From Chlamydiota bacterium (lineage in GTDB: Bacteria > Chlamydiota > Chlamydiia > Chlamydiales > 2-12-FULL-49-11), in NCBI GenBank assembly GCA_947478685.1, contig CANJWO010000003.1, positions 1-62,645 on the forward strand: 62,645 nucleotides of DNA, read 5' to 3'. The position numbers were made by a program, and so were the translations under genes. Positions 462 through 62,645 of this stretch are shown here, piece by piece (position 1 is the stretch's first letter; each line of letters starts with the position of its first letter). The notes under the pieces are model-generated. The model had not been told where the DNA came from. It did not search any database and saw nothing but the letters and a program-made list of their open reading frames with translations.

Positions 462-1262
462 ATGAATTCTTTAGAAAAAATGAATGGTACAGTCTATCAG
501 AAGGGTATTGAGTGGAAAACAGATAACAATGATGGATCTGTCTATATAAGCAATTGCAGTTTCGCAGATAGAGTAAAGGAAAATTTAGCTACACGGAAGT
601 GGCAAATTTTGGCTGGAGTGGCAATTATTGGAGTTTGTGCTGCTGTACTAGCGATAGCTATCCCGCTATTTTCCGCAACTATAGTACCTGACGTCGCTGT
701 TTTGGGTACAATTTTTGCAATAGATATACTAATAGTCGCTATTCCTTTTGTTCTAGCGAGAATATTTTCATTGCCAACTTCTTTAGCTAAGGTGCGTGCG
801 CCTGCTATGCTTGTTGAAATTCTAGGGCGCAAGGCAGTTGTGCCAGATCGGATTCTACGTAGAAAATCGACAGGACAGGGATTTACAGGATATGCATTTA
901 ACCTAAAATATAGGGTAACTTTAGGCAGAGAGTTTCCTGCTTCGGAAACACTAAAAATGAGATCTGAAATTGATTTAGGATATGAAAGTTCTAGAAAAGA
1001 GCAAAGTCAAATAGGGACAGAAAAGCAGCTTGCCGATTTCGGCAGATATATAAGAATTTCCGAGAGAGCTTTTACAAGACATCTAACTCCAGATCGAATT
1101 CATCAAATTCTCGATGAAACTAAGCTCAATTTTGAATTTGTCCGTAGTCGGATCAAACGTCTTATTGCAGGAGAGACAATTGGAATCTTAAATCCAAAAG
1201 GTGAAGAGCAGCCTGTTACTCCAGATTCGAAGATTCAACCCGGCTGGATTTTAAAGCAGTAG
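462..1262 (+). CDS. Inc-like membrane protein (bilobed hydrophobic domain), candidate type III secreted inclusion-membrane protein
   Basis: 266-aa ORF. Two adjacent hydrophobic segments (WQILAGVAIIGVCAAVLAIAIPLF and VAVLGTIFAIDILIVAIPFVLARIF) are separated by a 7-aa loop about 45 aa from the N-terminus; the rest is hydrophilic. GGAG sits 8 nt upstream of the ATG. No enzyme motif seen. Confidence 0.5.
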   Translation: MNSLEKMNGTVYQKGIEWKTDNNDGSVYISNCSFADRVKENLATRKWQILAGVAIIGVCAAVLAIAIPLFSATIVPDVAVLGTIFAIDILIVAIPFVLARIFSLPTSLAKVRAPAMLVEILGRKAVVPDRILRRKSTGQGFTGYAFNLKYRVTLGREFPASETLKMRSEIDLGYESSRKEQSQIGTEKQLADFGRYIRISERAFTRHLTPDRIHQILDETKLNFEFVRSRIKRLIAGETIGILNPKGEEQPVTPDSKIQPGWILKQ

Positions 1263-1302
1263 ATCAAAAGTCTGACCCCATTGGTTTAGTAATCATATTG
1301 AA

Positions 1303-2520
1303 TTAGGCGGTGCGGTGGCGATGGAAGAAGTAGATGAAGCAGAGGAGGATGAAGATGGAGCCGGTGAGGAGGGGGGCGTAGATGTTGATGGCGGCGAGGG
1401 GGCCGGCGACGAGGGGGGCGATGATTTGACCGATTGACCACATGGATCCGCTGGCTCCCATGGCACGGCCTTGGAGAGCGTCGGGTGTTTCAATGGAGAG
1501 GATAGTTCCTAGGTTGACCCAAGAGAGGGCGCCACCTATGAGGGCGATGGGGATGATAAACCAGAAGGGCCAGAGGGTGTTTGGGTAGACGAAGAGGGCG
1601 ACGCCAACGGAAGAGAGGATTGTCCCTGTGAGAATTAGTTTGTGGAGGGGGAATTTTGCGATGAGTTCCTTGTTTAGATACATGGCAACAAAAAACCAGA
1701 TAAGAGCTTGGTAGGCAAAGATATCGCCGATGGTGCCTGCACTTAGGTGAAATTTTTGGACAAGATAAGTGGGTGAGAAGATAAGAAAAAAGCCCCAGCC
1801 GATTGAGAAGAGAAGGAGGGCTGTAAGAATAATTCTTAATTTTTTCTGATGAAAGACGATCCGAATATCTTTAAACGTTGAGAGGAGGCTGATATGGGCC
1901 CCTTTTCTTTTCCACGTCTCAACAAAAAAGAAATAGACCATAAAAAAATTGATAAGGGCTGCTACAGCTGCAAAGATGAATGCGCCCGACCCAAAGAGCC
2001 AGTTAGGATTGGCAAGTTTTCCGCCTATCCAAGGGCCTGCTACAAATCCAAGACCACCAACTCCAATAAGTAAGCCAAATGCTCTGCTACGATGCTTGGT
2101 ATCAGTGAGATCGGCTGTTGCAGATTGTGCCAATGCAAAATTTCCAGAGCAAAAACCTGTTACCATTCGGCCGATAAATAACCATAAGAGACTTTGAGAA
2201 TAAACGCTTAAGGCCATCAAGGCATAACCAAAGATAGAGAGTCCGATCGTTGCTAAAAAGACTTTATACCGTCCATAATGATCGGCCATTGCTCCTGCAG
2301 CTGGGGCTCCAAAAAATTGGGTCACTCCAAATACAGCAAAAAGGAATCCGAGCATTGTTGTCCGAGTCAGTTCAGATGCATCATGTCCAAAAAAGGCAAG
2401 ATTGGGATTGAGCAAAAGGGGGGCTAAAACGGGGAATACAATTGAATATCCTACAAGATCAAGACCATAAGTAAGTAATATGGTTAAAAATGTCCGGTAA
2501 TCTCTGTCCGATCTAAACAT
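1303..2520 (-). CDS. MFS transporter (drug:H+ antiporter / TetA-like)
   Basis: 405 aa with a multi-TM profile. MFS motif A GAMADHYGRYKV follows TM2. Confidence 0.85.
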   Translation of the reverse strand: MFRSDRDYRTFLTILLTYGLDLVGYSIVFPVLAPLLLNPNLAFFGHDASELTRTTMLGFLFAVFGVTQFFGAPAAGAMADHYGRYKVFLATIGLSIFGYALMALSVYSQSLLWLFIGRMVTGFCSGNFALAQSATADLTDTKHRSRAFGLLIGVGGLGFVAGPWIGGKLANPNWLFGSGAFIFAAVAALINFFMVYFFFVETWKRKGAHISLLSTFKDIRIVFHQKKLRIILTALLLFSIGWGFFLIFSPTYLVQKFHLSAGTIGDIFAYQALIWFFVAMYLNKELIAKFPLHKLILTGTILSSVGVALFVYPNTLWPFWFIIPIALIGGALSWVNLGTILSIETPDALQGRAMGASGSMWSIGQIIAPLVAGPLAAINIYAPLLTGSIFILLCFIYFFHRHRTA

Positions 2521-2773: not shown

Positions 2774-3748
2774 TTAGAATTCGAATGAGTATGCGAATTG
2801 CGGCTTCCCTACAACAGCAGTAGGGGCTGCAAGCGTGCCTGCCAAAAAGAGGGTGAAATCGTACCAAGCGTGAAGAGCTACGCTCGATTTTAGGGAACGA
2901 TTTTTATGGGTAAGCCATCCCATATAGCCGCCAAGTGAAGTGATAAGCGGGAGACTAAATGAGTAATAACGCCAGCGATCTTTTTCATCTAAGCCTTGAG
3001 CGTTTGGAATATGGACGGCACCAAATACTAATGAAGAGAGGACAATTGCTCCTGTTGGATTTAGACGTTCTGCAAGATACGATTGAAGGTAGCCCCTAAA
3101 AAAAGACTCCTCTCCAACACCAACTGAAAATGCAGCGAGAGGAAATATGTTTGATGATACGCTACAAGAGTTAATATGCATGTCTGTGAAAGCAAAATAG
3201 GAAACAGCGGTTCCGAGTGTGAGTGCGCCGAGTAATCCGCCCCAAACTTCAGGCTTTTTCATCACACTCCATCGAAACGGGGCTGTTGTTAAATCAGATA
3301 GACTATCCATCGGCATTCTATAAGTATAGCCACTTTGTCCATTATTAATTCGGACATCTCTGTAGGCTGCAAAAATACCATAAGACCACATATTTGAAGC
3401 TGTTATGATGCTTACGGCGTCGTGAGTAAAAGCGTTTGTTCCGATTAAAGCACTGGTTGAACCAAATAGGCTTGCCGCTGTCTTTAAGTCGCCTAGATAA
3501 ACATGGCCAAGTCCAGGTACTAAAAATGACAATCCGACAGTTAAGAAGGAGCTTCTCTGGTGTTTTGGCAGTACAGGAATTGTCCCAGTCAATTGCGTTT
3601 CGGGAAGAGTCGGATTTGTAAATGTAGGCTGTTCAAGCATGGTAACTTGTTCTACTACAGGCTCGTCAGAGGTGTCGGCAAATACTAAAGATGATGCAGA
3701 AAGAATAGCGATTAAAAATTTCATGAAGACTCCGATTGTATTTTGCAA
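2774..3748 (-). CDS. CPBP (CAAX protease/bacteriocin-processing, Abi) family intramembrane protease with N-terminal extension
   Basis: Carries the family motifs EESFFRGYL and FGAVH plus HAWYD in a multi-TM C-terminal half. The likely true start is the ATG at 3724 (MKFLIAILSASSLVFA signal peptide). Confidence 0.75.
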   Translation of the reverse strand: MQNTIGVFMKFLIAILSASSLVFADTSDEPVVEQVTMLEQPTFTNPTLPETQLTGTIPVLPKHQRSSFLTVGLSFLVPGLGHVYLGDLKTAASLFGSTSALIGTNAFTHDAVSIITASNMWSYGIFAAYRDVRINNGQSGYTYRMPMDSLSDLTTAPFRWSVMKKPEVWGGLLGALTLGTAVSYFAFTDMHINSCSVSSNIFPLAAFSVGVGEESFFRGYLQSYLAERLNPTGAIVLSSLVFGAVHIPNAQGLDEKDRWRYYSFSLPLITSLGGYMGWLTHKNRSLKSSVALHAWYDFTLFLAGTLAAPTAVVGKPQFAYSFEF

Positions 3749-8872: not shown

Positions 8873-10261
8873 TTAACGAGGCCTTTTTTTGGAGAATTTT
8901 TTGTAGAGGAAGAAGATAGAGAGAGGGGCTAGAACGATAACGTAACCTAAGGCAATAAGGAGAGCATATTTGGCTTTCGAGCCAAATTGGAGGGCTTCAG
9001 GGGCAAAAAAACTAATGATGATGGTAATGATGCAGCCAAAAATGCCTAAAATAGTTGTTGTCCACATTCCGATAGATCCACCCGGGATTTTGAAAACTTT
9101 TGGCCGATCAATATATTTGTGATGAAGAGTGATAGCAGCTAGAAACATTAGGATGTACATAAGCATATAAAGGCTTGTGCTTAATGCGGTTAGCAGCCAA
9201 TAAAAAGCATTTACGCTAGGAACTAGCAGATAGACAAAACAAAAAGCACTAACTAAGATTGCCTGTATAATAAGAATATTAGCAGGGGCGTCGAAACGAT
9301 TTTTTTTTGCAAAAAATGGGGGTAAGTAGCCAAATTCAGCGGCATGGAGAAAGCCCTTTGCAGGGGAGAGGAGCCAATTAATGATACTTCCGACCGTGCC
9401 GACAACGATTATAATTGGAATAACAGGTAAGAACCAAGATAGATTAAATGCATTTAGAAAAAGGGAGAAGACTTCTACAACTCCGGCAACTAGACTAATT
9501 TCATTTTGTGGAATTATGATTGCAATTGCGAGGGAGCCGAGTAGCATAGAAAAGAGTATAAAAAGGCTCGCTATACAAATGGCTCTTGGAAAATTTCTTT
9601 GCGGATTTTTAATTCCGGTAATATAGACCCCTGCAAGCTCCATTCCCAGAAAACCTGCCATGATTGAAATAAGCGATACCCAGGAAGAGGCCGTTTTAAA
9701 AGTTGGAAGTATAGTGGCTGCACTAAATTCGATTTGAATAGGATGTCCAGTATAGACCCAAACAGCACCGAGAATAATTAGCAAAATAAGGGGAAAAATA
9801 GTCCCTATTATACCGCATAACTCGCTTATTTTTGCTGAAGTTCTAAGGCCAAAGAGATTAAAAATAGTGAAAGCCCAGAAAAGGGCGATTACTGTTGAAA
9901 GAATATAAACTGGTGATGAAATGAGGCTAGGACTAATCAAATAGGCGATTGTACCTGCAATAAATGAGAGGATAGATGGATACCAGACTAATGTATTGGT
10001 CCATTGAAGCCAAATTGCAATCATAGCCATTTTATCACCAAATGCTCGATTCACCCAGTAGTAGACACCCCCCTTTTCAGGAAAGGTTGCAGAGAGTTCA
10101 GCAGCAACAAGGGCAGTCGGAATTAAAAATACAATTGCAGCGAATACAAAAAAGAAGATAAGGGAGCTGCCGAATAGGGCAGAAGAGGGGAGGTTTCGAA
10201 TGCTGTCGATTGTTGCAATGATGATGATAATGAGTGAGAACAATGGGATTTTTTTAGACAT
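8873..10261 (-). CDS. APC-superfamily amino-acid permease, GadC (glutamate:GABA antiporter)-like
   Basis: 462 aa with a roughly 12-TM profile. Several stretches align by eye with E. coli GadC from memory: PQNEISLVAGVVEVF vs PGNEINLSAGVMQTF, and FKIPGG vs FNIPGG. Confidence 0.75.
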   Translation of the reverse strand: MSKKIPLFSLIIIIIATIDSIRNLPSSALFGSSLIFFFVFAAIVFLIPTALVAAELSATFPEKGGVYYWVNRAFGDKMAMIAIWLQWTNTLVWYPSILSFIAGTIAYLISPSLISSPVYILSTVIALFWAFTIFNLFGLRTSAKISELCGIIGTIFPLILLIILGAVWVYTGHPIQIEFSAATILPTFKTASSWVSLISIMAGFLGMELAGVYITGIKNPQRNFPRAICIASLFILFSMLLGSLAIAIIIPQNEISLVAGVVEVFSLFLNAFNLSWFLPVIPIIIVVGTVGSIINWLLSPAKGFLHAAEFGYLPPFFAKKNRFDAPANILIIQAILVSAFCFVYLLVPSVNAFYWLLTALSTSLYMLMYILMFLAAITLHHKYIDRPKVFKIPGGSIGMWTTTILGIFGCIITIIISFFAPEALQFGSKAKYALLIALGYVIVLAPLSIFFLYKKFSKKRPR

Positions 10262-12548: not shown

Positions 12549-13220
12549 TCAGAAAGGATTTAGAGCTTTTAAGCCATCGAGGGTTGTGTCAACTGGGTTA
12601 CTAATAGCATCTTGTGTCATTTTAAGAGGGATGTTAATGAGGTTTTTAATGTTAAAAATAACCTCCTTTAAAATTGCTTGTGTCAGGCGTCTTGTGAGTT
12701 CGCCTCCTTTAGTTTGGACGTTCAAAAGTGTCAGTTTAGGGATTTTTAGAGTTTTTAATTTACCATCTTTTCCTTCTATTCGGACGATTAAATTATTGAA
12801 TGTAAGTTTTTTAATCACTGCGTAGGAATCTGATTTATCATCATCGGTCTCTATATTATTCATCAGTGTCTCCCAATTGGTGACGTTATCTAAATAGTCA
12901 ACAGTAAGGGTAATATTAGTAAGTTCAATTCTATCGATACTAACCACTTTTTCTAAGTAATTTTTATAAGGAGCTTCAATTGCTATTGACCCAATTCTTA
13001 GGGCATAAGCAGTGGGGTAATCGATCGGATTTGCCAAGGTAAGATTCTCTAGCAAAATATCTTTCATTGGAGAGAGCTCGATATCTTCTATTCTGACGCT
13101 AGTTTTAAATTTCGTGGTAAGTATATGAGATAGAATGAGATCCAACTTAGTGTAAGCAATTGCACCTATTGCAGATAAGGTTAGAAGTAGAAAGAGGATG
13201 ATCCCAAGCAATCGTCTCAT
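12549..13220 (-). CDS. Membrane-anchored hypothetical protein
   Basis: 223 aa with an N-terminal signal anchor (RRLLGIILFLLLTLSAIGAIA) followed by a beta-rich soluble part. No motif recognised. Confidence 0.5.
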   Translation of the reverse strand: MRRLLGIILFLLLTLSAIGAIAYTKLDLILSHILTTKFKTSVRIEDIELSPMKDILLENLTLANPIDYPTAYALRIGSIAIEAPYKNYLEKVVSIDRIELTNITLTVDYLDNVTNWETLMNNIETDDDKSDSYAVIKKLTFNNLIVRIEGKDGKLKTLKIPKLTLLNVQTKGGELTRRLTQAILKEVIFNIKNLINIPLKMTQDAISNPVDTTLDGLKALNPF

Positions 13221-13235
13221 GAGATTATGGTTATA

Positions 13236-13275
13236 TTAAAAAAGAAAGGCGCGCAAGGAAAATTCGAGCGCGCCT
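13236..13275 (-). terminator. Intrinsic terminator of groES-groEL
   Basis: Perfect 8-bp GC stem AGGCGCGC (13247-13254) / GCGCGCCT (13268-13275), followed on the minus strand by TTCTTTTTT. Confidence 0.8.
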
Positions 13276-13291
13276 AAAAGAATACTTAAGA

Positions 13292-14929
<1,638 letters not shown>

Positions 14930-29662: not shown

Positions 29663-30924
29663 TTATAGAGATTGCGATGCCAAAACTTTCCCCCACGATG
29701 AATGAGGGGAAAATCGTCAAATGGTACAAAAAAGAGGGCGATCCTATTGCTGAAGAAGAGGTTCTTTGTGAGATTGCAACCGATAAATCGACAATGGAAT
29801 TTACTTCGATAGAAAAAGGGCATATTCGAAAAATCTTTTTTAAAGAGGGGGATGTAGTCCCTGTTGGAGAGATTCTACTACTACATACAGAGACAAAAGA
29901 TGAAGATATCTCCGGCTATAAGCCGAAAAAGGCCGAAGGTAAAAAAGTTGAAGCTAAAACGGAAGAGACTAAAGTAGAAATTATTAAGTCTAGCGGTTCA
30001 ATTGCTTTGCCAACGTTTAGTCCATCACCACCTAGAACTAATTACGAATTTGAGACAAAAGATGAGCTAGGAAAAATAGCTGCATCCCCCCTTGCAAAAA
30101 AAATAGCTATAGAAAAGGGGCTTGATCTTACTTCTATTAAAGGGTCTGGACCAAATGGGCGTATCATCGCTAAAGATTTGGAATTTGCCCAAAGCTCAGG
30201 TCCAATCTCATTAAACCAAGTGGCTCCCACAATTCCACCCGGAACATATGTTGAGATCCCCCTGACACCCATTCGGAAAGTAATTGGTGATCGCTTACAA
30301 GCATCTAAGATGACAATTCCCCACTATTACATTACCGATGAAGTTCGCGCTGACAAAATGATTGATCTAAGAAACCAGCTTAAAGAGGCCGGTTTAAAGG
30401 TAACTTATAATGATTTTGTCATTAGAGCATGTGCCCTCGCACTTAAAAAACACCCTGAAATCAATTCAGGATATAACTCACAAAATCAGACTATTATCCG
30501 CTTTAAGACCGTAGATATTTCTCTCGCAGTAAGCATTCCAGATGGTCTAATTACCCCAATCCTTTGTCATGCAGACTATAAAGACATCTTCACCCTGTCA
30601 GAAGAGGCTAAGCGTTTAGCAAAACGGGCCAAAGAAAATAGCCTTAAACCAGAAGAGTACCAAGGGGGCTCATTTACTATCTCAAACCTCGGAATGTTTG
30701 GCATCAAATCATTTGACGCCGTCCTCAATCCGCCCCAAGCAGCCATCCTGGCCGTAGGGGGCATCCTCGAAAGGGTCTTCCTTGAAAATGGCCAGCCAAT
30801 CCTCGGCCACGTCATGAACCTCACCCTCTCCCTCGATCACCGCGTCATCGACGGTGCCGACGGCGCCAAATTCCTCAACACACTCAAACTCTTCCTCACA
30901 AACCCAGCTATGCTCTTGGTCTAA
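29659..30924 (+). CDS. pdhC: Dihydrolipoamide acetyltransferase (E2)
   Basis: Lipoyl motif EIATDKSTMEF, an E3-binding domain (ASPLAKKIAIEKGLDL) and catalytic DHRVIDGA. ATGA overlap with pdhB. Confidence 0.93.
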   Translation: MIIEIAMPKLSPTMNEGKIVKWYKKEGDPIAEEEVLCEIATDKSTMEFTSIEKGHIRKIFFKEGDVVPVGEILLLHTETKDEDISGYKPKKAEGKKVEAKTEETKVEIIKSSGSIALPTFSPSPPRTNYEFETKDELGKIAASPLAKKIAIEKGLDLTSIKGSGPNGRIIAKDLEFAQSSGPISLNQVAPTIPPGTYVEIPLTPIRKVIGDRLQASKMTIPHYYITDEVRADKMIDLRNQLKEAGLKVTYNDFVIRACALALKKHPEINSGYNSQNQTIIRFKTVDISLAVSIPDGLITPILCHADYKDIFTLSEEAKRLAKRAKENSLKPEEYQGGSFTISNLGMFGIKSFDAVLNPPQAAILAVGGILERVFLENGQPILGHVMNLTLSLDHRVIDGADGAKFLNTLKLFLTNPAMLLV

Positions 30925-30928
30925 AGCT

Positions 30929-31852
30929 TTAGATCCATTTGCGGCGGCGGAAGAAGGCGAGGGTGATGACGATGACGACGAAGACAAAGCCCATGATGAT
31001 GTAGAAAGCGTGGGGACTGCGTTGGAAGGGCATGGGGACGTTCATGCCATAGATGCTGGAGATTACGGTGGGGAAGGTGAGGACGATTGTAAGGGCTGTT
31101 AGGAGCCGGATGGTTTTATTAAACTGATTTGTTATGATGACTTGTACTGAATTGCGAAGACTTGAGATGATGCGAAGGCTGAGGCGGCACATCTCTTCTG
31201 CTTGTTCTGTTGCGAGGAGGAGATCTTCTAGGAGATCTTGGTCTTTTTCATAGAGGATTGTAAACTTTCCAGAGAGGATTTCTTCAATTACCTCTTTCAG
31301 AGGTTGGAGAGAGTTTTGGCACTGATTGAGATTTTCCTCTTTTCTTGTTAGTTCAGTAATTTCTTTGTCACTTACTGTGCTGATATCTTTTTCTTGATTG
31401 ATCACCTCTGCTCTGATCCGTCTAATTACTTTTGTATATTCCTGAACAATGCGTAAAAGAATGTGAATAAGGAGCTTTGTCCGCATGCTGGTGGCGGTTG
31501 TCGATTTTTCTGATAAAATTCTCTCGATAATATGACAAGTAGCTGGACAGATTGTGACAAGATGCTCCTTTGTGACAACTATTGTAAGTGTCGCTGTATA
31601 AAGGCCTACCTCTTGCAGATAGGGGAATCGGACATAAACTACAAAGGAGTCGTTTTCAAGTCGTTCAATACGAGCGATTTCCATCATATCGAGGGCGTCT
31701 TTAATATCGTCGGAGTCTATTTTTAGAATCTTAGAAAGGTTCTCAATATCTTCGAGCGTAGCATTTCCTGCATGGATCCAACTGTTGGATATTGGAGCCG
31801 GAATGATATGAAAACGCTCATCAGCTGTTTCTTTTAAGTAGTTTGTGTACAT
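30929..31852 (-). CDS. CorA-family divalent cation transporter
   Basis: YGMNV (the GMN motif) lies between two C-terminal TM helices. 307 aa. Confidence 0.8.
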   Translation of the reverse strand: MYTNYLKETADERFHIIPAPISNSWIHAGNATLEDIENLSKILKIDSDDIKDALDMMEIARIERLENDSFVVYVRFPYLQEVGLYTATLTIVVTKEHLVTICPATCHIIERILSEKSTTATSMRTKLLIHILLRIVQEYTKVIRRIRAEVINQEKDISTVSDKEITELTRKEENLNQCQNSLQPLKEVIEEILSGKFTILYEKDQDLLEDLLLATEQAEEMCRLSLRIISSLRNSVQVIITNQFNKTIRLLTALTIVLTFPTVISSIYGMNVPMPFQRSPHAFYIIMGFVFVVIVITLAFFRRRKWI

Positions 31853-35972: not shown

Positions 35973-36569
35973 TTAGACGGGGAGTCTTGAGGAGAAGGCT
36001 CGAGTGAGGGTCCCTTCGTCGAGAAAGTCAAGGCTTGAGCCGAGGGGCATGCCCATGGCGAGGCGGGAGACTCTGATTCCGGCCGGCTCGAGCTCTTTTT
36101 TTAGGAAGAGTGCGGTGGCATCCCCTTCGATAGTTGAATCGAGGGCCAGGATGACCTCTTTAGTCTCGTGGCGGCTTAAGCGTTCTTTCAGTTCATTGAA
36201 GTGTAGATCGCTTGGGCCAAAGTGGTCCACGGGGGAGAGGAGGCCTGGAATGGCATGATAAAGGCCGTTATAGATGCCGGTTGCCTCTAAAGTAAAGATG
36301 TCTTTGGGGGAGGCAACAACGCATAGGAGGTTCGAATCACGAATGTCAAGGTCGCAGAAGGGGCAGCGAGCCTTGTCGTAGAGGGCTTTGCAGGTGGAGC
36401 ATGTAATTAAATCTTTTTTTATACTCTTTAGAAGCTCGGCAAAGGCTGTAAGATCGAGATCTTTCCAATAAATTATTTGAAAAGCGAACCGCTCGGCCGT
36501 TTTTTTCCCAACGCCAGGGAACTTTCTTAAGAATGAAATCAATTTTTGAAGTGCGAGAGGATAGCTCAT
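35973..36569 (-). CDS. recR: Recombination protein RecR
   Basis: HhH segment (FPGVGKKTAERFAF), C4 zinc finger CSTC...CPFC, and a Toprim domain. Confidence 0.93.
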   Translation of the reverse strand: MSYPLALQKLISFLRKFPGVGKKTAERFAFQIIYWKDLDLTAFAELLKSIKKDLITCSTCKALYDKARCPFCDLDIRDSNLLCVVASPKDIFTLEATGIYNGLYHAIPGLLSPVDHFGPSDLHFNELKERLSRHETKEVILALDSTIEGDATALFLKKELEPAGIRVSRLAMGMPLGSSLDFLDEGTLTRAFSSRLPV

Positions 36570-39641: not shown

Positions 39642-40703
39642 CTATGATTTTATTTCAACCCAGGTGGGGCGAATGCGCTCTCTAGGTATTACGTAGTGGG
39701 TGAAGAAGAAGTCGTTTCTGCTTTGGACTTCAGTAAAGATTTCGTGATAACGGGGGATGTTTACAAAGGAGGCGAGAGGAAGAGCATCCTGGCATGCAGG
39801 AAAGAGAGGGCTAAGGTCTAATTGAGCAGCCATGATTTCAGGTTTATAGACAAAATTGATGAATTTATAAGCGGCATCTACATGTTCTGATTCGGCAGAG
39901 AGGGCAACATTTTCGATAGTTGTGAACAGTCCTTCTTTAGGGAGATAGATTTGAAGGTGAGAAAATTCTGGGTAGTTTTTCCAAAAAAATGAGACTCTTA
40001 GGATGGCTACTGGGCAATCTTCGGTGGAGATCATGTATTGGACTCTATCATCAGTGTACGCTTCGACCCGCTTTTTTTGCTCTTTTAGAAGCTTGATCAC
40101 GTTGTATTCTTCACTTGTGGAAAGGGTGTTTCTGAAACCGTAGAGATAATGGGAAGCAAAATCTAGGGCTTCTACTGGGTCGGCTGTCATGACTACTCTA
40201 GAGTTACCTTCAAAGAGGACTGAAAGAGAAGGTGTGAATGGTGTGTAGAGCTTCTTTTTTTCAAGGGCGAGGCCATAAACTTCCCAGAAATAGGGGATAG
40301 AGAATTGATTTTTTGGGTCGAAGTCTCTGTCCAATAGATAGGGTTCGATACGGTGTAAGAAGTCTAGCTTTTTCTTGTCTAATGGTTTAAGTAGTCCTTT
40401 CTCTCTAAGTTCGGTAACACCATAGTCAGATGGAAAGACAAGATCATAGCCAATCCCTTTAGTATTTTCGAGTTTTAAGATGAGCTCTTCATTGCTTGTG
40501 TAATGATTGACGATCAGTTTGATTCCTGTCTTCTCTTCAAATTTGCGAAAAGTCTCTTCAGGAAAAAAATCGCCCCAGACAAAAATATTGAGTATGTTTT
40601 TATCCTCGGTTTTAGCACAGCTGTAACTTGTAAAATAGGTGGCTAAAAAGAGAGAGAGTGTAATTCCTAGGATATAAAGAGAGCGTACAAAAAATTTCAT
40701 CAA
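39642..40703 (-). CDS. potD: Spermidine/putrescine ABC transporter substrate-binding protein
   Basis: 353 aa with a signal anchor and a PotD/PotF-type periplasmic binding fold. Last gene of the potABCD order. Confidence 0.85.
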   Translation of the reverse strand: MMKFFVRSLYILGITLSLFLATYFTSYSCAKTEDKNILNIFVWGDFFPEETFRKFEEKTGIKLIVNHYTSNEELILKLENTKGIGYDLVFPSDYGVTELREKGLLKPLDKKKLDFLHRIEPYLLDRDFDPKNQFSIPYFWEVYGLALEKKKLYTPFTPSLSVLFEGNSRVVMTADPVEALDFASHYLYGFRNTLSTSEEYNVIKLLKEQKKRVEAYTDDRVQYMISTEDCPVAILRVSFFWKNYPEFSHLQIYLPKEGLFTTIENVALSAESEHVDAAYKFINFVYKPEIMAAQLDLSPLFPACQDALPLASFVNIPRYHEIFTEVQSRNDFFFTHYVIPRERIRPTWVEIKS

Positions 40704-44622: not shown

Positions 44623-45419
44623 TAGCCCTTTTTTTAGGAATGGCCGTTCAAGTTTGTGCACTCGAGGAACAACCTTGGTTTCATCCACCGTTTAATTTTC
44701 ATGGAAAGGGGGCAGTGGATGGGAGCTTCTTTACCAATGTAAATAATGGATATAATCCCATTGATTATCATTCTACAAATATTCAGGTGATAGCAGGTCT
44801 CTTAGCTCCTGTCTCGCCTCGCTGGGATGCAGAGATTGAAATTGAGCTCGAAAGCACATCTAAATATAATTTTGGATTCGAAAGCGCGGCTTTCCAAATA
44901 AGAAGGCTTTTTTTGAACGATATTGTAGAAGATTTTGTCAGCTTTGATATCGGCGTTAACGTTCGAGCTGTTCCGGCGCAACGTCTTCACGATGTCGCCG
45001 TTCCCTACCACGATCTTTGGAATTTTGAACTCACAAGCGCCTTAGGTAAGGAGTTTACACAGGAAAATGAATGGCTCTGGAGGACATTTGTCTCTGCAGC
45101 TCTTGGTCAAGCTAACCGCGGCTATCCATGGGTGAAAGCAAATTTTGATATTCGTGCAAAAGCCTTTAAAGATTATATGTTCACAGCCTTTCTAAGAAGT
45201 TATTTTGGTTTGGGTAATCGTACCCTTATCAATGTAAGAGATTTTGATGGCTATGCGTTCTACCGCCACCAAAGCATCGATGTAGGCGCCACATTTACCA
45301 TCTTCTTTAATGCAAGAGGATCACTCACCCTCAGTTATCTGCACCGCTTTCTAGCCAGATCATTCCCCGAAGACTACAACAGCTTCAGACTCACGTACGA
45401 CCTCCCTTTCTCTTTCTAA
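44595..45419 (+). CDS. Putative outer-membrane beta-barrel protein
   Basis: Signal peptide MAYTTKSKIVALFLGMAVQVCA. Alternating beta-strand pattern with a C-terminal ...LPFSF. Start taken at 44595. Confidence 0.55.
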   Translation: MAYTTKSKIVALFLGMAVQVCALEEQPWFHPPFNFHGKGAVDGSFFTNVNNGYNPIDYHSTNIQVIAGLLAPVSPRWDAEIEIELESTSKYNFGFESAAFQIRRLFLNDIVEDFVSFDIGVNVRAVPAQRLHDVAVPYHDLWNFELTSALGKEFTQENEWLWRTFVSAALGQANRGYPWVKANFDIRAKAFKDYMFTAFLRSYFGLGNRTLINVRDFDGYAFYRHQSIDVGATFTIFFNARGSLTLSYLHRFLARSFPEDYNSFRLTYDLPFSF

Positions 45420-45420
45420 A

Positions 45421-45592
45421 TATAGTGAATTAAATTTACATTGATAAGTTTACACAGTATGTGCCCTTGGGTTTCATTAGGCATTAGCCGGCGCTAAAGC
45501 AGGCCGTGTGTTTTCACACGAGCGATGCAAGCGAATGGAACCCAAGGGATACAGACGCAGTAAAATTATCAATGCAAATTTAATTCGCTATA
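45421..45592 (+). mobile_element. MITE-like element family A, copy 2 (complete, 172 bp)
   Basis: 26-bp terminal inverted repeats TATAGTGAATTAAATTTACATTGATA (45421-45446) and TATCAATGCAAATTTAATTCGCTATA (45567-45592), complementary at 24/26. Internal 15-bp stem CCCTTGGGTTTCATT (45464-45478) / AATGGAACCCAAGGG (45534-45548). No coding capacity. Confidence 0.85.
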
Positions 45593-45603
45593 TAAATAAG
45601 AAT

Positions 45604-45704
45604 TTTTACCACAGAGAACACAGAGGCGCTACGCGCAAAGAATTTGTTGTTTTTTCTCCGTGTCCTCTGTGCTCTCTAGAGAGCGCAGCGAACGGGTGGT
45701 TAAA
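45604..45704. repeat. Palindromic repeat family B, copy 2 (inverted relative to copy 1, more degenerate)
   Basis: ACCACAGAGAACACAGAGGCGCTACGCGCAAA ... TCTCCGTGTCCTCTGTGCTCTCT matches the reverse complement of 2615-2695. It lies 11 nt after MITE copy 2. Confidence 0.7.
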
Positions 45705-47234: not shown

Positions 47235-47624
47235 CTATTTATGATATGCAGAACCTTTGAAAATTTCAAAACCTCTATAAATTTGTTCAAGCAAAATAAG
47301 GCGGACCAGTTGATGGGTAAAGGTGAGAGGGGATAGACTAAATTTGAAAGAGGCATTATCAGAAATATTTTTAGGGGGGCCTTCAGGACCACCAATAACA
47401 AAAATATGCCCAGGTTTTGACATTAAAAAAGTTGAAAACTCTTCACTGCTTAGATACTTCCCTTTAACATCGAGGAGGGAATAGTTTTCGTCTTTAACAC
47501 TAAGTTCTTTAGGAAAAACCCACTCTAATTTAGCATCCCGTGTTAAGCGCTTCTCGTATTCAGCAAGGGCGCTCAATAACCAAGGCTCTTTGTGTTTTCC
47601 AGGAGAAATAATCTTGATGCGCAT
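47235..47624 (-). CDS. rlmH: 23S rRNA (pseudouridine1915-N3)-methyltransferase RlmH
   Basis: SPOUT fold with IGGPEGPP and LSPLTFTHQLVRL. Start taken at MRIKIISPGK. Confidence 0.85.
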   Translation of the reverse strand: MRIKIISPGKHKEPWLLSALAEYEKRLTRDAKLEWVFPKELSVKDENYSLLDVKGKYLSSEEFSTFLMSKPGHIFVIGGPEGPPKNISDNASFKFSLSPLTFTHQLVRLILLEQIYRGFEIFKGSAYHK

Positions 47625-47672
47625 CATGACTATCATTATAGTAAGAGAGGAATATTCTTGGTAGGTATAGAT

Positions 47673-48515
47673 ATGTTAGGGTGGATTTTTTGGGATCCGA
47701 GTAGTGAGTTTGTAATCATTCCTTTTGTGAATATCCCTATCACTTGGTACGGGCTGTTGTTCGCTACAGGCTTTTGGCTTGGGTTTCATATGTTTACATA
47801 CATGTTAAAAAATAGACTTGGTTCAAAAGATGCAAATGCTTTTTCAGAAAGGCTCTTGCTCTATATAATTGTAGCGACAATCATCGGTGCACGACTTGGG
47901 CATATCTTTTTCTACGAACATCCGATGGAATACCTAGCCAATCCTATTTCAATTTTTAAAACCTGGGAAGGGGGATTAGCAAGTCACGGCGCCGTCCTTG
48001 CGATTGTATTGGCGGTCCTCATTTTTTCTATTAGAATTAGAAAAGAGTTCCCCGAATTTACCTTTTGGAAAATCCTAGATTACCTCTCAGTTCCTGCAAT
48101 GCTTCTAAGCACTTTGATCCGTGTCGGTAATTTCTTTAATCAAGAAATTTTAGGTGTTTCTACAGATAAGCCATGGGGAATTATCTTTGGCCACCCCGCG
48201 GATGGCGGACTTATTACCCCAAGACACCCAGCTCAGCTCTATGAGGCTGCCTTCTATTTTGCCCTCTTTCTCCTCCTCGCCCATATCTGGTACAGAAAAA
48301 GGGACGAGCTTCTTCCAGGCCGCCTTGCCGGCATCACTCTAGTAAGTGCATTTCTCTTTAGATTTCTCGTCGAATTCATAAAAACAGAGCAAAGCGCCTG
48401 GTTTGACCAGCCTAACGGCTCTCTTCTTATGGGTCAGGTCCTGAGTCTTCCTATTATCGCAATTGGCCTCTATCTCCTAGTCAGAAAAGATAAGAAGTTT
48501 ATTCAATCACACTAG
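47673..48515 (+). CDS. lgt: Prolipoprotein diacylglyceryl transferase
   Basis: YGLLFATGF, GGLASHG, GNFFNQE, HPAQLYEA. Start taken at the ATG at 47673. Confidence 0.9.
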   Translation: MLGWIFWDPSSEFVIIPFVNIPITWYGLLFATGFWLGFHMFTYMLKNRLGSKDANAFSERLLLYIIVATIIGARLGHIFFYEHPMEYLANPISIFKTWEGGLASHGAVLAIVLAVLIFSIRIRKEFPEFTFWKILDYLSVPAMLLSTLIRVGNFFNQEILGVSTDKPWGIIFGHPADGGLITPRHPAQLYEAAFYFALFLLLAHIWYRKRDELLPGRLAGITLVSAFLFRFLVEFIKTEQSAWFDQPNGSLLMGQVLSLPIIAIGLYLLVRKDKKFIQSH

Positions 48516-58440: not shown

Positions 58441-59394
58441 ATGCTGCAAAAGATTGTTTTATCAACTATTTTTTTTAGTTTTATAGGATGGGGCTCGCTT
58501 CTAGGGTTTCATGTGACTGCAGAGTCAGAAAAGGTCTTTGCTTTTGAGGTCGGTTATTGTGGTCTTTGGCGCTCGCCACTGAAAGATATGAGTTTTATAA
58601 CTGGGGGGGAGAATGGGGAAGCTCCTTTTGAAAAAGTTAAATTTAACTATGTTTCTGGGGTTAGAGCTCTAGTTGAAATGAATCTCGGACAGAAAAATTC
58701 TATTGAGGCAGTTTACACAGGTCTATTTAATTGGAATAATCATGGATCAGCAACAGACTCTACCTATACTTTTAGTGTTCCAACTTCCCCATATTTAAAT
58801 GAAGATTGGACCGATTTTTACTATTTTCACTATCACTATAGATCACAGCTTAATTCGGGGGAATTGTCGTATTGGAGGCATGTCACGCCACGTTACGTCA
58901 ATTATTTTTCATTTTCCTGGATGATCGGCTTAAGATATATTGACTTTCGAGATAGTATCCATATGAACAATGGAACAGGTCAAGTTGGCGATACAGCTAG
59001 TGTAAAAGCGATCAATCGAATGGGTGGAGCTCAAGTAGGCTTAGAACTTCAGTGTAATTCATCAAAAAGATTTACATGGGCTATTCAAGTTAAGGGGGGC
59101 GGCTATGCCGATTTTGTTTCTAGGAAAACAATATTTAATGATCTTGGAAATACCGAGCTAATTGTCAATTCAGAGCAAAGCAGAGTGAAAAAAGATTTCA
59201 CTTTAGAATTGATTCCCTACATTATGTATAGAATAAATCCGATCTATTTGCGCCTCGCATATGACAGAGTAATCCTCTTTAATCCCGTATTTGCCCCAAG
59301 GCAGCTTTCAGCTGCAAAATTTGTGGATGAGGTCTACACCCACAATTACGTCAATTTTCAAGCCGTCTACGCCAGCATCGGCTTCTACTGGTAA
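58441..59394 (+). CDS. Putative outer-membrane beta-barrel protein/porin
   Basis: Signal peptide, alternating aromatic beta-strand pattern, and C-terminal ...ASIGFYW. Confidence 0.6.
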   Translation: MLQKIVLSTIFFSFIGWGSLLGFHVTAESEKVFAFEVGYCGLWRSPLKDMSFITGGENGEAPFEKVKFNYVSGVRALVEMNLGQKNSIEAVYTGLFNWNNHGSATDSTYTFSVPTSPYLNEDWTDFYYFHYHYRSQLNSGELSYWRHVTPRYVNYFSFSWMIGLRYIDFRDSIHMNNGTGQVGDTASVKAINRMGGAQVGLELQCNSSKRFTWAIQVKGGGYADFVSRKTIFNDLGNTELIVNSEQSRVKKDFTLELIPYIMYRINPIYLRLAYDRVILFNPVFAPRQLSAAKFVDEVYTHNYVNFQAVYASIGFYW

Positions 59395-59395
59395 T

Positions 59396-60892
59396 TTAGA
59401 GAATTCTGTGAAGGGCTGAGGGGTCGATATATGCCTCTTTTAAGAAGAGCTGGTAGAAAGCTTCTTCGTTGTGCTCGATAAGGTCAAGAGTCTGTAGAGC
59501 TGATTTGCTCTCTTCAAGTTCGTAAGAGAGACCAAACATTCTGGCAGCACCATTGAGCGAACCGTGTTTCATTAGGATAAATCCAATTGTATATAAAGCT
59601 ATTAGATTTTTTTCTTGTGCAGCACTATCGAAAAGGGACTTGGCAGCTTTAGGATCGCTGTTTGACGTAAAGAGATGATAATAGAGGGCCATTTGAGCGG
59701 TCTCATTGAATTCAGCGAGGTGGGTTAATTGAGCATAGTGAGGGGAGAGGGCAACAAATGAGAGAAGTTCACATGTTATTTGGATAGGGTATGTATAGCC
59801 TTCTGCTAGAGTTGCGATAAAAAAATCAGCCAATTCCCTTGGATCAAATATTCGGGATTGATTAGAAATAATGTAGGTTATGTAAGCTATTTTGGCGTGG
59901 TGATTACCCTCTCTTGCTAGAGTAAGAAGCTCAGTTCTGCTAAGACCTTCCTCGAGAGCACAAATTTCTTCATAGCCTTTATAATCGCCCCTTTTGAGGG
60001 TTTCAATGACATAGCGTTTGCTTTCTGCAAATTTTCTGTTAGTAATTAGAGCGATGGCAACAGGTGCAGGACTTCCACCAGTTTCATAGGTAGCTTTTAA
60101 CAAGTCTATTTTCTCTGGTAGTGTAAGAATTTGTGATGTAAAGGCGTCCCCGACTCTAGCAAGATTCATTAAACATAAGTCGATCCCATCATCAATAGAA
60201 GTGGTTTGTAAAATGGTAGCAAGATCGGTGTGGCATTTCATAGTAGAAGTAATTGGAATAGGGATAAGACTTGGTGGCGTAATGCCATGAGCTTCTACAG
60301 GAAGTATTTCAGGTCTGCCTGGGATGATTTCTTGTGCCATTAAAAGGGGGTACCTCTCTCCAGGAAAGAAAAAATAGCCGGGAGATCTAATGCAGCTTTT
60401 AGATCCATAAACATGCGCGTCAGGTAAGGCTTCGTGAAAGGCTGGGACAATAGAGACGCCTGCTTCGCAAGCAATAAAATAGATGTGAGCAGTTGCTATA
60501 AGATGGCTTGTAAGAGGTAGTTTTGCAACATCTTTAGGATAGAGCACTCCTTCTTCATTATCCCCAAAGCAAAGCCCTATTTCAGAGCTAGTTTTATCTC
60601 CATGACAAAAGACAAAAAGATGACTAATTTTATCACGTAAAGCCAATGAAGAAAAAACAGAACCTAAATCTGCACTCTCAGTCTCGCAAAAATATAGATT
60701 ATAGACTGAGGCAGCTTTTTTTATTAAGTTGGTAAAAGCGAACCTTTCGACAGCGAGAGCGCCATTGTGGTCGTCTTTTGCTTTGATCATGACTGCAATA
60801 GGTGTGTCTATAGCATGGCGGGCCCTGGATTTCTCAAGATAGCTCGGTATTTCGCTTTTAGTTAATATAAGTTGATTCTCTATACTTTCCAT
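59396..60892 (-). CDS. Caspase-fold (clan CD, CHAT-like) cysteine protease domain fused to Sel1/TPR-like helical repeats; candidate effector
   Basis: His-Gly at the end of a hydrophobic strand (HLFVFCHGD), then Ala-Cys at the end of another strand 45 aa later (HIYFIACEAG). The C-terminal half has Sel1-like repeats (e.g. AQMALYYHLF...DPKAAKSLFDSAAQEKNLIALYTIGFILMKHG). Confidence 0.5.
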   Translation of the reverse strand: MESIENQLILTKSEIPSYLEKSRARHAIDTPIAVMIKAKDDHNGALAVERFAFTNLIKKAASVYNLYFCETESADLGSVFSSLALRDKISHLFVFCHGDKTSSEIGLCFGDNEEGVLYPKDVAKLPLTSHLIATAHIYFIACEAGVSIVPAFHEALPDAHVYGSKSCIRSPGYFFFPGERYPLLMAQEIIPGRPEILPVEAHGITPPSLIPIPITSTMKCHTDLATILQTTSIDDGIDLCLMNLARVGDAFTSQILTLPEKIDLLKATYETGGSPAPVAIALITNRKFAESKRYVIETLKRGDYKGYEEICALEEGLSRTELLTLAREGNHHAKIAYITYIISNQSRIFDPRELADFFIATLAEGYTYPIQITCELLSFVALSPHYAQLTHLAEFNETAQMALYYHLFTSNSDPKAAKSLFDSAAQEKNLIALYTIGFILMKHGSLNGAARMFGLSYELEESKSALQTLDLIEHNEEAFYQLFLKEAYIDPSALHRIL

Positions 60893-61676: not shown

Positions 61677-62522
61677 ATGTCTGTTAGTGGAACTGGTAGT
61701 TTTAGTTTTTGTGATCATTTTAAGTATTCAGTAAGGTCTTCTTTTCAGGTTCCTTGTAAGGTAGCTAAAGAAAAAGGGTGTTCTGATGCAGCTAAGAAGG
61801 TGGCTATAGCAGTATCTACTGTTTTTTTAGTTGGGTTTCTTTGGCATGCTGGATCAGCATCTTATAATAAGTATAAATTCCGAGAAGAAGGAAGATTGTT
61901 TGTCCACGATAATGATGCATATATAAGAACTCACAGAATAGATCTTGAGCGGAACCCTAATATATTGGGTGGGTGGATTGGATGCTATGGGATCAAACAT
62001 GCAGGCGATCGATTAGTTCTCTCTACCGTGGTTAAATCTACGCCATCAGCTCAAACATTAACAGTTGCTCTTATGTATGAAGATAATGGGTGTATCAGGA
62101 TAGCAAATCAAAAATATGGGGTTGCTTTTGGAGATTCTATATGCAGTGAATTGTATGATGTGGTTTTATTTAGAGATCCTGTGCAAGTAGCTGACTATAT
62201 AGCTACTAAACCACTTGTCTGGGAGTGTGAGCCCTTTAAATTCAGGGGCAGAGTCCCATCACCTGCATTAAATATGGGAAAATTAAATGATTTGTTCATT
62301 ACTTTTCCAGTATCTCCTAGGTGCCCTGCTGGTAGAATTGCAAGAAAAGTTGACGATAATCGGGGCGATCAAACTGTTGAAATTCTTACTATAGATCAAT
62401 TAAAGGGGGAATATCGAGTTAAGCCTTCAGTTGTTATGAAAGCCTTTATAGATCTTTGGGATCAAAAATTAGTTCAGGTTGCAACTCTTCACAAAGCTTA
62501 TAGTGAATTAAATTTACATTGA
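61677..62522 (+). CDS. Hypothetical single-pass membrane protein whose last 7 codons and stop come from the MITE
   Basis: 281-aa ORF with a TM segment VAIAVSTVFLVGFLW. The C-terminal YSELNLH-stop is encoded by the MITE left repeat (62499-62522). Confidence 0.5.
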   Translation: MSVSGTGSFSFCDHFKYSVRSSFQVPCKVAKEKGCSDAAKKVAIAVSTVFLVGFLWHAGSASYNKYKFREEGRLFVHDNDAYIRTHRIDLERNPNILGGWIGCYGIKHAGDRLVLSTVVKSTPSAQTLTVALMYEDNGCIRIANQKYGVAFGDSICSELYDVVLFRDPVQVADYIATKPLVWECEPFKFRGRVPSPALNMGKLNDLFITFPVSPRCPAGRIARKVDDNRGDQTVEILTIDQLKGEYRVKPSVVMKAFIDLWDQKLVQVATLHKAYSELNLH

Positions 62523-62645
62523 TAAGTTTACACAGTATGTGCCCTTGGGTTTCATTAAGCATTAGCCGGCGCTGAAGCAGGCCGTGTGTTTTCACACGAG
62601 CGATGCAAGCGAATGGAACCCAAGGGATACAGACGCAGTAAAATT
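62499..62645 (+). mobile_element. MITE-like element family A, copy 3 (right 25 nt cut off by the window end)
   Basis: Starts with the left repeat TATAGTGAATTAAATTTACATTGATA. Matches 45421-45567 with two mismatches. Confidence 0.8.

Follow-up and report, generated by a model that had tools for sequence, protein, structure and literature searches.

Tails of C-ending codons at the ends of unit-terminal genes in an uncultured chlamydia

The DNA considered here, hereafter the window, is a stretch of 62,645 nucleotides (contig CANJWO010000003.1, positions 1 to 62,645) from an uncultured Rhabdochlamydiaceae-like chlamydia, with lake and freshwater metagenomes as its provenance. Close to its beginning lies a gene for an MFS transporter in which nearly all of the last 40 codons end in C, and our work concerns this tail together with the comparable tails of other genes in the same DNA. 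The window has a GC content of 40%, and genes on the plus strand have a baseline share of codons with C in the third position (C3) of about 0.12, those on the minus strand one of about 0.22. Its plus strand is strongly skewed toward G (13,991 G against 11,049 C), and third-position G (G3) exceeds C3 in plus-strand genes, with the reverse in minus-strand genes; the window therefore probably lies inside one replichore. The MFS gene and its surroundings contain the following features.

1303 to 2520, minus strand: MFS transporter gene, 405 aa (PF07690, MFS_1; DHA1-like), the last gene of its transcription unit
1306 to 1425, minus strand: saturated C3 tail of the MFS gene, sense codons 366-405, with 39 codons ending in C (NNC) and one CAT
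1426 to 1923, minus strand: graded zone of the MFS gene, about codons 200-365, in which C3 climbs from about 0.25 to 0.5-0.65
1303 to 1305, minus strand: TAA stop of the MFS gene, where the C enrichment ends
1263 to 1302, no strand: AT-rich spacer of 40 nt between the MFS gene and its convergent neighbour, the 30 nt next to the stop containing 5 C and 5 G (sense)
462 to 1262, plus strand: convergent partner of the MFS gene, coding for a hypothetical membrane protein ("Inc-like") whose long hydrophobic stretch is bilobed, C3 0.12, without a C tail

An earlier reading of this DNA, made from the letters alone (the sequence-only reading), had reported that all of the last 40 MFS codons except one CAT end in C. 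Direct reading of the minus-strand codons confirmed this count, and neither G nor A occupies any third position of the tail (G3 = 0, A3 = 0). The chance of at least 39 NNC codons in 40 is 3e-15 at the C3 of the gene itself (0.39) and 7e-25 at the minus-strand baseline (0.22). In the sense orientation, the 120 nt of the tail comprise 64 C, 14 G, 27 T and 15 A, that is 53% C, 12% G and 76% pyrimidine, with 47 dinucleotides of a pyrimidine followed by C (YC). The best 78-nt stretch of the gene (1341-1418; 45 C, 9 G and 35 YC in sense) ranks first in C minus G among the 125,136 stretches of this length on both strands. Leu and Arg codons switch to CTC and CGC, and Lys, Glu, Gln, Met and Trp are absent from the tail. 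The aligned positions of MFS orthologues hold Lys-rich C-termini with one Trp and one Met, and Lys is replaced here by His or Arg. Seen from the plus strand, 1306-1425 is a strict GNN repeat with G5-G6 runs, and a spurious Ser/Pro-rich open reading frame (ORF) is present at 1293..1493 on the minus strand, both as the sequence-only reading had described. It had also placed the gene in convergent orientation with the Inc-like gene across a 40-nt spacer free of hairpins; we likewise found no terminator-like hairpin in 1263-1302 or nearby on the minus strand. By contrast, its statement that the rest of the MFS gene uses ordinary A/T-ending codons did not hold. Counted back from the stop in bins of 40 codons, the C-ending codons number 39, 19, 26, 15, 14, 11, 6, 11, 5 and 9. 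The C3 enrichment starts near codon 200-286 and is strong over the last 120 codons, forming a gradient with a saturated end. A second strain haplotype, seen in runs X8 and X10, carries five third-position differences within 229 nt of the graded zone (1477, 1669, 1678, 1702 and 1705); at four of the five sites the window has sense T, against C in the second haplotype, and the contig of this haplotype has zero differences over the remaining 690 nt of the MFS gene.

A local GC of 59% inside a window of 40% GC might suggest an artefact or a trivial origin, whether an assembly error, the import of a high-GC segment or a genuine gene running antisense. The last of these might also be suggested by the plus-strand frame that stays open for 54 codons (1276-1440) antisense to the tail and would encode an acidic Gly/Glu/Asp-rich peptide. 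However, the DNA of the MFS gene is identical in four independent assemblies (L008-L011) and present, with read support, in several independent runs, and no variants were seen in the MFS tail across the DNA runs compared. An import of high GC content does not fit with C going up while G goes down to a G3 of 0, nor with a protein that aligns with its orthologues right through the tail. As for an antisense gene, the plus strand over the tail holds no ORF of at least 50 aa with a start codon; the GNN frame is open because C3 enrichment produces GNN automatically, and the same pattern recurs in unrelated genes. Such origins are extremely improbable in our judgement, and the orthologue alignment together with the identical assemblies effectively excludes all three of them.

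C3-rich tails were found in nine genes of the window, on both DNA strands and always on the sense strand. The C3 of the last 40 codons is highest in the MFS gene (0.97). The sequence-only reading had tied the MFS tail to those at 30700-31111, and this tie holds for the E2 acyltransferase and CorA genes. The eight further tails are given below with the number of NNC codons among the last 40 and the corresponding C3.

30700 to 30921, plus strand: tail of the E2 acyltransferase gene (29/40, C3 0.72), the last gene of the E1alpha-E1beta-E2 operon
30932 to 31111, minus strand: tail of the CorA gene (30/40, C3 0.75), convergent with E2 across a 4-nt spacer and at the end of a bamA-skp-lpxD string
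35976 to 36095, minus strand: tail of recR (24/40, C3 0.60), followed by a 52-nt AT-rich spacer and then bamA
49698 to 49861, minus strand: tail of a gene for a 612-aa hypothetical protein (49695..51533; 24/40, C3 0.60), followed by a 77-nt AT-rich spacer
45297 to 45416, plus strand: tail of a gene for a 282-aa hypothetical protein (22/40, C3 0.55), with a high-copy repeat element directly 3'
39645 to 39764, minus strand: moderate tail of a solute-binding protein gene (19/40, C3 0.47), the last gene of an ABC transporter operon
59272 to 59391, plus strand: moderate tail of a porin-like gene (19/40, C3 0.47), the next gene being convergent across a 1-nt spacer
59399 to 59518, minus strand: weak tail of the 498-aa partner gene of the porin-like gene (15/40, C3 0.38)

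The tails are about 120-360 nt long and end at the stop codon, and the spacers just past the stop are AT-rich and C-poor. At four-fold degenerate sites in the tails, C occurs 147 times, A 35, T 31 and G 7, so that C takes the place of A, T and G alike, with G reduced the most. The coding content is affected as well, since codons unable to end in C make up 17% of the tails and 25% of the gene bodies (p = 7e-4). Over the nine tails, the gain in C3 is equal for both base classes at codon position 2 (0.70 with a pyrimidine there, 0.73 with a purine). Gene bodies in the window mainly follow the replication skew. This skew was rejected as the cause of the tails: the enrichment lies on the sense strand of genes on both DNA strands, and it therefore tracks transcription and not replication. 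A codon effect of membrane proteins or transmembrane helices was rejected as well, given that the tailed genes include those for the E2 acyltransferase, RecR and the solute-binding protein and that C3 in the MFS gene rises only over about its last half.

The position of the tails within transcription units was examined in a pooled set of 15 loci from this organism and its relatives, with units inferred from gene order only. A tail was called strong when the C3 of the last 40 codons exceeded that of the body by at least 0.25. A gene was called operon-internal when a co-directional gene lay within 30 nt downstream, and unit-terminal when it was followed by a convergent gene or by a longer spacer. 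Strong tails were found in none of 84 operon-internal ORFs and in 17 of 145 unit-terminal ones (Fisher p = 4e-4); among tail-positive genomes only, the corresponding figures were 0/57 and 17/90 (p = 3e-4). The tailed genes include recognisable operon ends, namely E2, the ABC transporter binding protein and CorA. That the MFS tail is a non-accidental feature of a gene end, as the sequence-only reading implied, is in agreement with strong tails occurring only in unit-terminal genes. The tails are a real, statistically overwhelming and coherent pattern linked to the ends of transcription units. A simple rule by which every tight convergent junction bears a tail does not apply, as a eukaryote-like ubiquitin C-terminal hydrolase gene (48499-49617, PF00443) and lgt (47592-48515) overlap by 17 nt and both lack a tail. 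In the two metatranscriptome runs with any trace of the organism, only about 5% of the sampled words were found for the MFS region and for the GroEL region alike, and one contig, of 151 nt, falls within the MFS gene.

Matches to a hairpin-plus-T terminator are as common in shuffled sequence as in the window. Clear canonical terminators stand after the GroEL gene and after the gene at 2774..3748, both of which have no tail. The GroEL terminator (gene 13292..14926, terminator 13220-13291) consists of a GC-rich hairpin and a T run and is conserved in the relative L007 (526-600). The GroEL gene, in which T- and A-ending codons dominate, has a C3 of 0.17 in the window and 0.155 in L007 and carries no C tail, and this codon usage excludes the candidate that the tails are runs of preferred codons. 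More generally, the tails might reflect codon selection at the level of translation near the end of the frame, either as a gradient of accuracy or processivity or as a cluster of rare, slow codons before termination. Indeed, the pattern keeps to the codon phase and strengthens up to the stop, where it ends; intragenic gradients of codon bias have been described (PMC2941156), and third positions that are all C bar stop codons from both alternative sense frames (ORFs 1286..1441 and 1293..1493). Against this, C-ending codons are not preferred (C3 of GroEL 0.16-0.17), and operon-internal genes, which are equally translated, have no strong tail in 84 cases. Moreover, an effect of this size, with Lys, Glu, Gln, Met and Trp removed, suggests that nucleotide content is what matters, rather than decoding. 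We consider selection of this kind very improbable.

Rho binds C-rich, pyrimidine-rich RNA, and synonymous recoding toward pyrimidines suffices to induce Rho termination (PMC13323073); intragenic Rho loading (rut) sites are documented, and genome-wide Rut maps exist for B. subtilis (PMC12350095). The explanation that we favour is that the C-ending tail might serve as a Rho loading site within the coding sequence, at gene ends whose spacers leave no room for a terminator, a possibility that we place only just short of probable. Unit-terminal genes with little intergenic room would carry C at nearly every free position of their last 40-120 codons, while shunning G and the amino acids whose codons cannot end in C. 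The mRNA 3' end would thereby become a long, unstructured, C-rich and G-poor stretch with the composition of the rut sites bound by the Rho helicase. Rho would load on the tail once ribosomes clear it, translocate 5' to 3' and release RNA polymerase in or just past the AT-rich spacer, and this release would curb read-through into the neighbouring, often convergent, gene. Several features of the tails fit a rut site: the excess of C and avoidance of G in sense, RNA predicted to be unstructured, a length of at least 120 nt, restriction to unit-terminal genes and persistence against C>T decay. Also in favour of Rho loading are the clear canonical terminators after tail-less genes and, within the clade, an MFS tail that is present at convergent junctions with 40-45-nt spacers and missing in L002. 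In the MFS tail, C exceeds G across at least 70-80 nt, little structure is predicted and the position is unit-terminal, as is expected of rut sites. Its sense RNA is predicted to be almost free of pairs in both the minimum free energy and the centroid structures, and a 191-nt fold over the tail (-21.7 kcal/mol, shuffle mean -24.6, z +0.99) is not more stable than shuffles.

Several observations weigh against this explanation. No Rho domain was found among the 49 ORFs scanned in the 62.6-kb window, and rho is presumed present because Chlamydiae generally encode it. A saturation of 39/40 and the replacement of amino acids far exceed what known rut sites need, and would thus imply unusually strong selection per site for an intracellular bacterium. 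The equal gain of C3 after pyrimidines and purines means that YC, which is bound by the primary site of Rho, is not specifically favoured. The whole tail is translated up to the stop, so that ribosomes should mask it, and Rho could reach it only if transcription were uncoupled or a gap opened behind the last ribosome. Spacers just past the stop, although unconstrained, are not C-rich, and tail strength is related only weakly and non-significantly to the energy of downstream hairpins or to spacer length (rho -0.25 and -0.27). Among the relatives, MFS orthologues at 73-80% identity have no tail, even at overlapping or 13-nt convergent junctions (L004, L005); L014 has a 4-nt junction of E2 and CorA and no tails at all; and genes recently inserted at tailed junctions are tail-less. 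At present, the tails are at most candidate members of the family of Rho-dependent terminators.

The inserted genes without tails are the Inc-like gene here, a methyltransferase gene that takes its place in L007 (11219-11980) and a gene for a 210-233-aa protein in L012 and L015. The gene inserted between CorA and E2 in L012 (11232-11933, minus strand) has the reverse pattern, with a body C3 of 0.31 and only 1/40 of its last codons NNC.

The history of the tails bears on both selection and mutation. In the closest relative, L007, the MFS protein is 95% identical, 28% of codons diverge synonymously (108 codon differences) and the tail is kept at 36/40. Only 4 of the synonymous differences from the window gene lie in the last 40 codons (Fisher p = 0.018), and on the L007 branch, with L001 as outgroup, 12 C>T changes fall in MFS codons 200-365 and 0 in the last 40. 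The MFS tail is weaker (19/40) in a relative more distant than L007, and L001 (82% identity) bears half-strength tails on both the MFS gene and its convergent partner. Across lineages, tails are strong in the window and L007, half as strong in L001 and L012, and missing from relatives that are AT-richer or remoter. The sequence-only reading had proposed conservation of synonymous C in orthologues as a check against a local mutational accident. This stood for L007 and failed for the orthologues at 73-80% identity, whose lack of a tail means that the MFS tail is lineage-specific and not a conserved property of the gene. Moreover, two lineages that had each reached a C-rich equilibrium would give the same appearance of conservation, and synonymous conservation alone is therefore compatible with a strong local mutational bias. 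The CorA tail is C3-rich in lineages down to 64% aa identity and nearly absent in AT-richer ones, and it is older than the MFS tail. Tails also vary with gene arrangement: the MFS gene is tailed where it is convergent with a spacer of 40-45 nt (window, L007 and L001), while in L002 and L015 (one tail-positive genome) E2 and CorA are tailed and the MFS gene, there followed by a co-directional gene, is not. E2 is tailed in L012 and L015 although the gene downstream is co-directional. The spacers 3' of tails are non-homologous between lineages, and the DNA 3' of the MFS stop varies by strain, one contig of run X8 diverging exactly at base 1303. Together, these two observations indicate that the DNA past the stop is young.

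This youth makes the sharp boundary of C at the stop codon compatible also with a functionless mutation or repair bias, which would act where RNA polymerases stall or terminate at unit ends and push the sense strand to C. The candidate process is repeated transcription-coupled repair synthesis on the template strand, with DNA that has long been at a unit end becoming saturated. Such a bias would fit with a trait that is lineage-specific and graded, with a saturation that goes beyond plausible functional need and drags the amino-acid composition along, with newly inserted partner genes at tailed junctions having no tail and with the absence of a YC preference. The five clustered third-position differences of the second strain (1477-1705), four of them sense T/C, point in the same direction. 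On the other hand, the bias would need a local equilibrium shift to C of about 100-fold, confined to 120-360 nt and to some genes only, and it would have to replace all three other bases, transversions included. It would also run counter to the transcription-associated asymmetry that is established, where deamination (C>T) of the non-template strand leaves coding strands poor in C. The C>T decay of the L007 branch, which is seen upstream and not at all in the last 40 codons, argues against it too. A version driven by antisense read-through cannot yield the reciprocal tails of E2/CorA, of 58441/59396 and of the L001 MFS gene and its partner; antisense transcription as a source of mutational asymmetry is thus ruled out, both members of convergent pairs being tailed. 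On balance, we regard a mutational by-product, the strongest rival of Rho loading, as unlikely.

The antisense strand could also be the relevant one in a functional sense. A G-rich, purine-rich non-template strand might be a roadblock (R-loop or G-rich blockage) to converging polymerases, or might give converging transcripts a 3' end resistant to Rho or exonuclease, and so shield the tailed gene from antisense read-through. Many tails do lie at convergent junctions with spacers of 1-40 nt, the plus strand of 1306-1425 is strictly GNN with its G5-G6 runs, and the partner gene at 462..1262 lacks both a tail and a hairpin. Yet tails also precede co-directional genes (recR, 49695..51533, and E2 in L012 and L015), where one would not expect a converging polymerase. 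The distances between the G runs exceed those of a canonical quadruplex, and the plus-strand RNA shows no more structure than its shuffles do (z +1.48). Taken together, these points make a role of the antisense strand improbable.

Full-text literature searches turned up no account of gene ends with tails of C-ending codons, be it for Chlamydiae or for other bacteria. Classical Rho-dependent terminators are lambda tR1 and trp t'. If Rho acts on the tails, they would form an unusual kind of rut-like, Rho-type signal, one that keeps to the codon phase, comes close to saturation and does not extend beyond the reading frame. Like the rut sites of lambda tR1, trp t' and the B. subtilis Rut maps (PMC12350095), they present C-rich, G-poor RNA of at least 80 nt, predicted to be unstructured, before the end of a unit. 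Unlike these sites, the putative loading sites described here lie wholly within translated sequence, are locked to position 3, approach saturation, alter amino-acid usage, stop at the stop codon and show no extra preference for YC. In bacteria with runaway transcription, a purine bias that avoids Rho likewise lets synonymous sites encode whether Rho acts; there, whole genes are purine-rich, whereas here only the last 40-120 codons of unit-terminal genes are affected, and in the opposite direction (PMC13323073). Gradients of codon bias within genes, which have been put down to selection against nonsense or frameshift errors, share with the tails a codon usage that shifts progressively toward the 3' end, but they are slight, genome-wide and made of preferred codons, in contrast to extreme tails that are unit-terminal only and consist of codons not preferred by GroEL (PMC2941156). 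R-loop-prone skew is known as a G-rich non-template strand. At human gene 3' ends, strand-asymmetric G/C has been linked to R-loops and termination; the skew reported there resembles the tails in lying at gene ends, and differs in that here it is the sense strand of a bacterium that is C-rich, with the opposite sign (PMC3787257).

In a broader form, environmental chlamydiae of this clade might use a terminator code inside coding sequence. A persistent directional force on the last 40-120 codons of operon-terminal genes would bring C to every free position, purge G and replace Lys, Glu, Gln, Met and Trp, so that one set of nucleotides would encode both the end of the protein and the signal to stop transcription. 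This force could be either selection for a Rho of high C specificity or an undescribed repair bias coupled to termination. We think this general claim somewhat unlikely. If Rho loading on the tails is real, they would be an uncommonly clean natural case of dual coding, in which a transcription signal written on synonymous sites reshapes protein C-termini in a compact genome. The operon ends of uncultured chlamydiae would then be predictable from sequence alone, and codon usage would have a component driven by termination, the mirror image of the Rho-avoidance purine bias that has been reported from Bacilli. If the tails are instead a mutational by-product, they would mark a strong, localised and strand-specific mutational process at the ends of transcription units, so far undescribed. 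In both cases, gene callers and scans for horizontal transfer can be misled by the spurious ORFs and the local GC anomalies to which the tails give rise.

Some further features of the window were noted. An amino-acid permease gene (8873..10261, minus strand) is C3-rich at its 5' end, with 20/40 of its first codons NNC (10142-10261), and is the only clear 5' case in the window. No part of the window matched an Rfam entry at gathering thresholds, and a known RNA family was therefore rejected as an explanation of the tail. Three copies of 99% identity represent a repeat of about 170 nt (1-147, 45421-45592 and 62499-62645), the window starting and ending inside copies. Reads cover 1-268 about 17-60 times as deeply as the flanks, and the repeat is thus high-copy in the genome or in the community. 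Two of its copies begin right after or across a stop codon, and it has no significant match in Rfam. A second high-copy element occupies 2547-2814, with a depth of about 7-36 times the flanks and a long inverted repeat at about 2617-2697, and many contigs from other runs break inside it. A related inverted copy of this second element, at 45610-45652, adjoins the repeat of about 170 nt.

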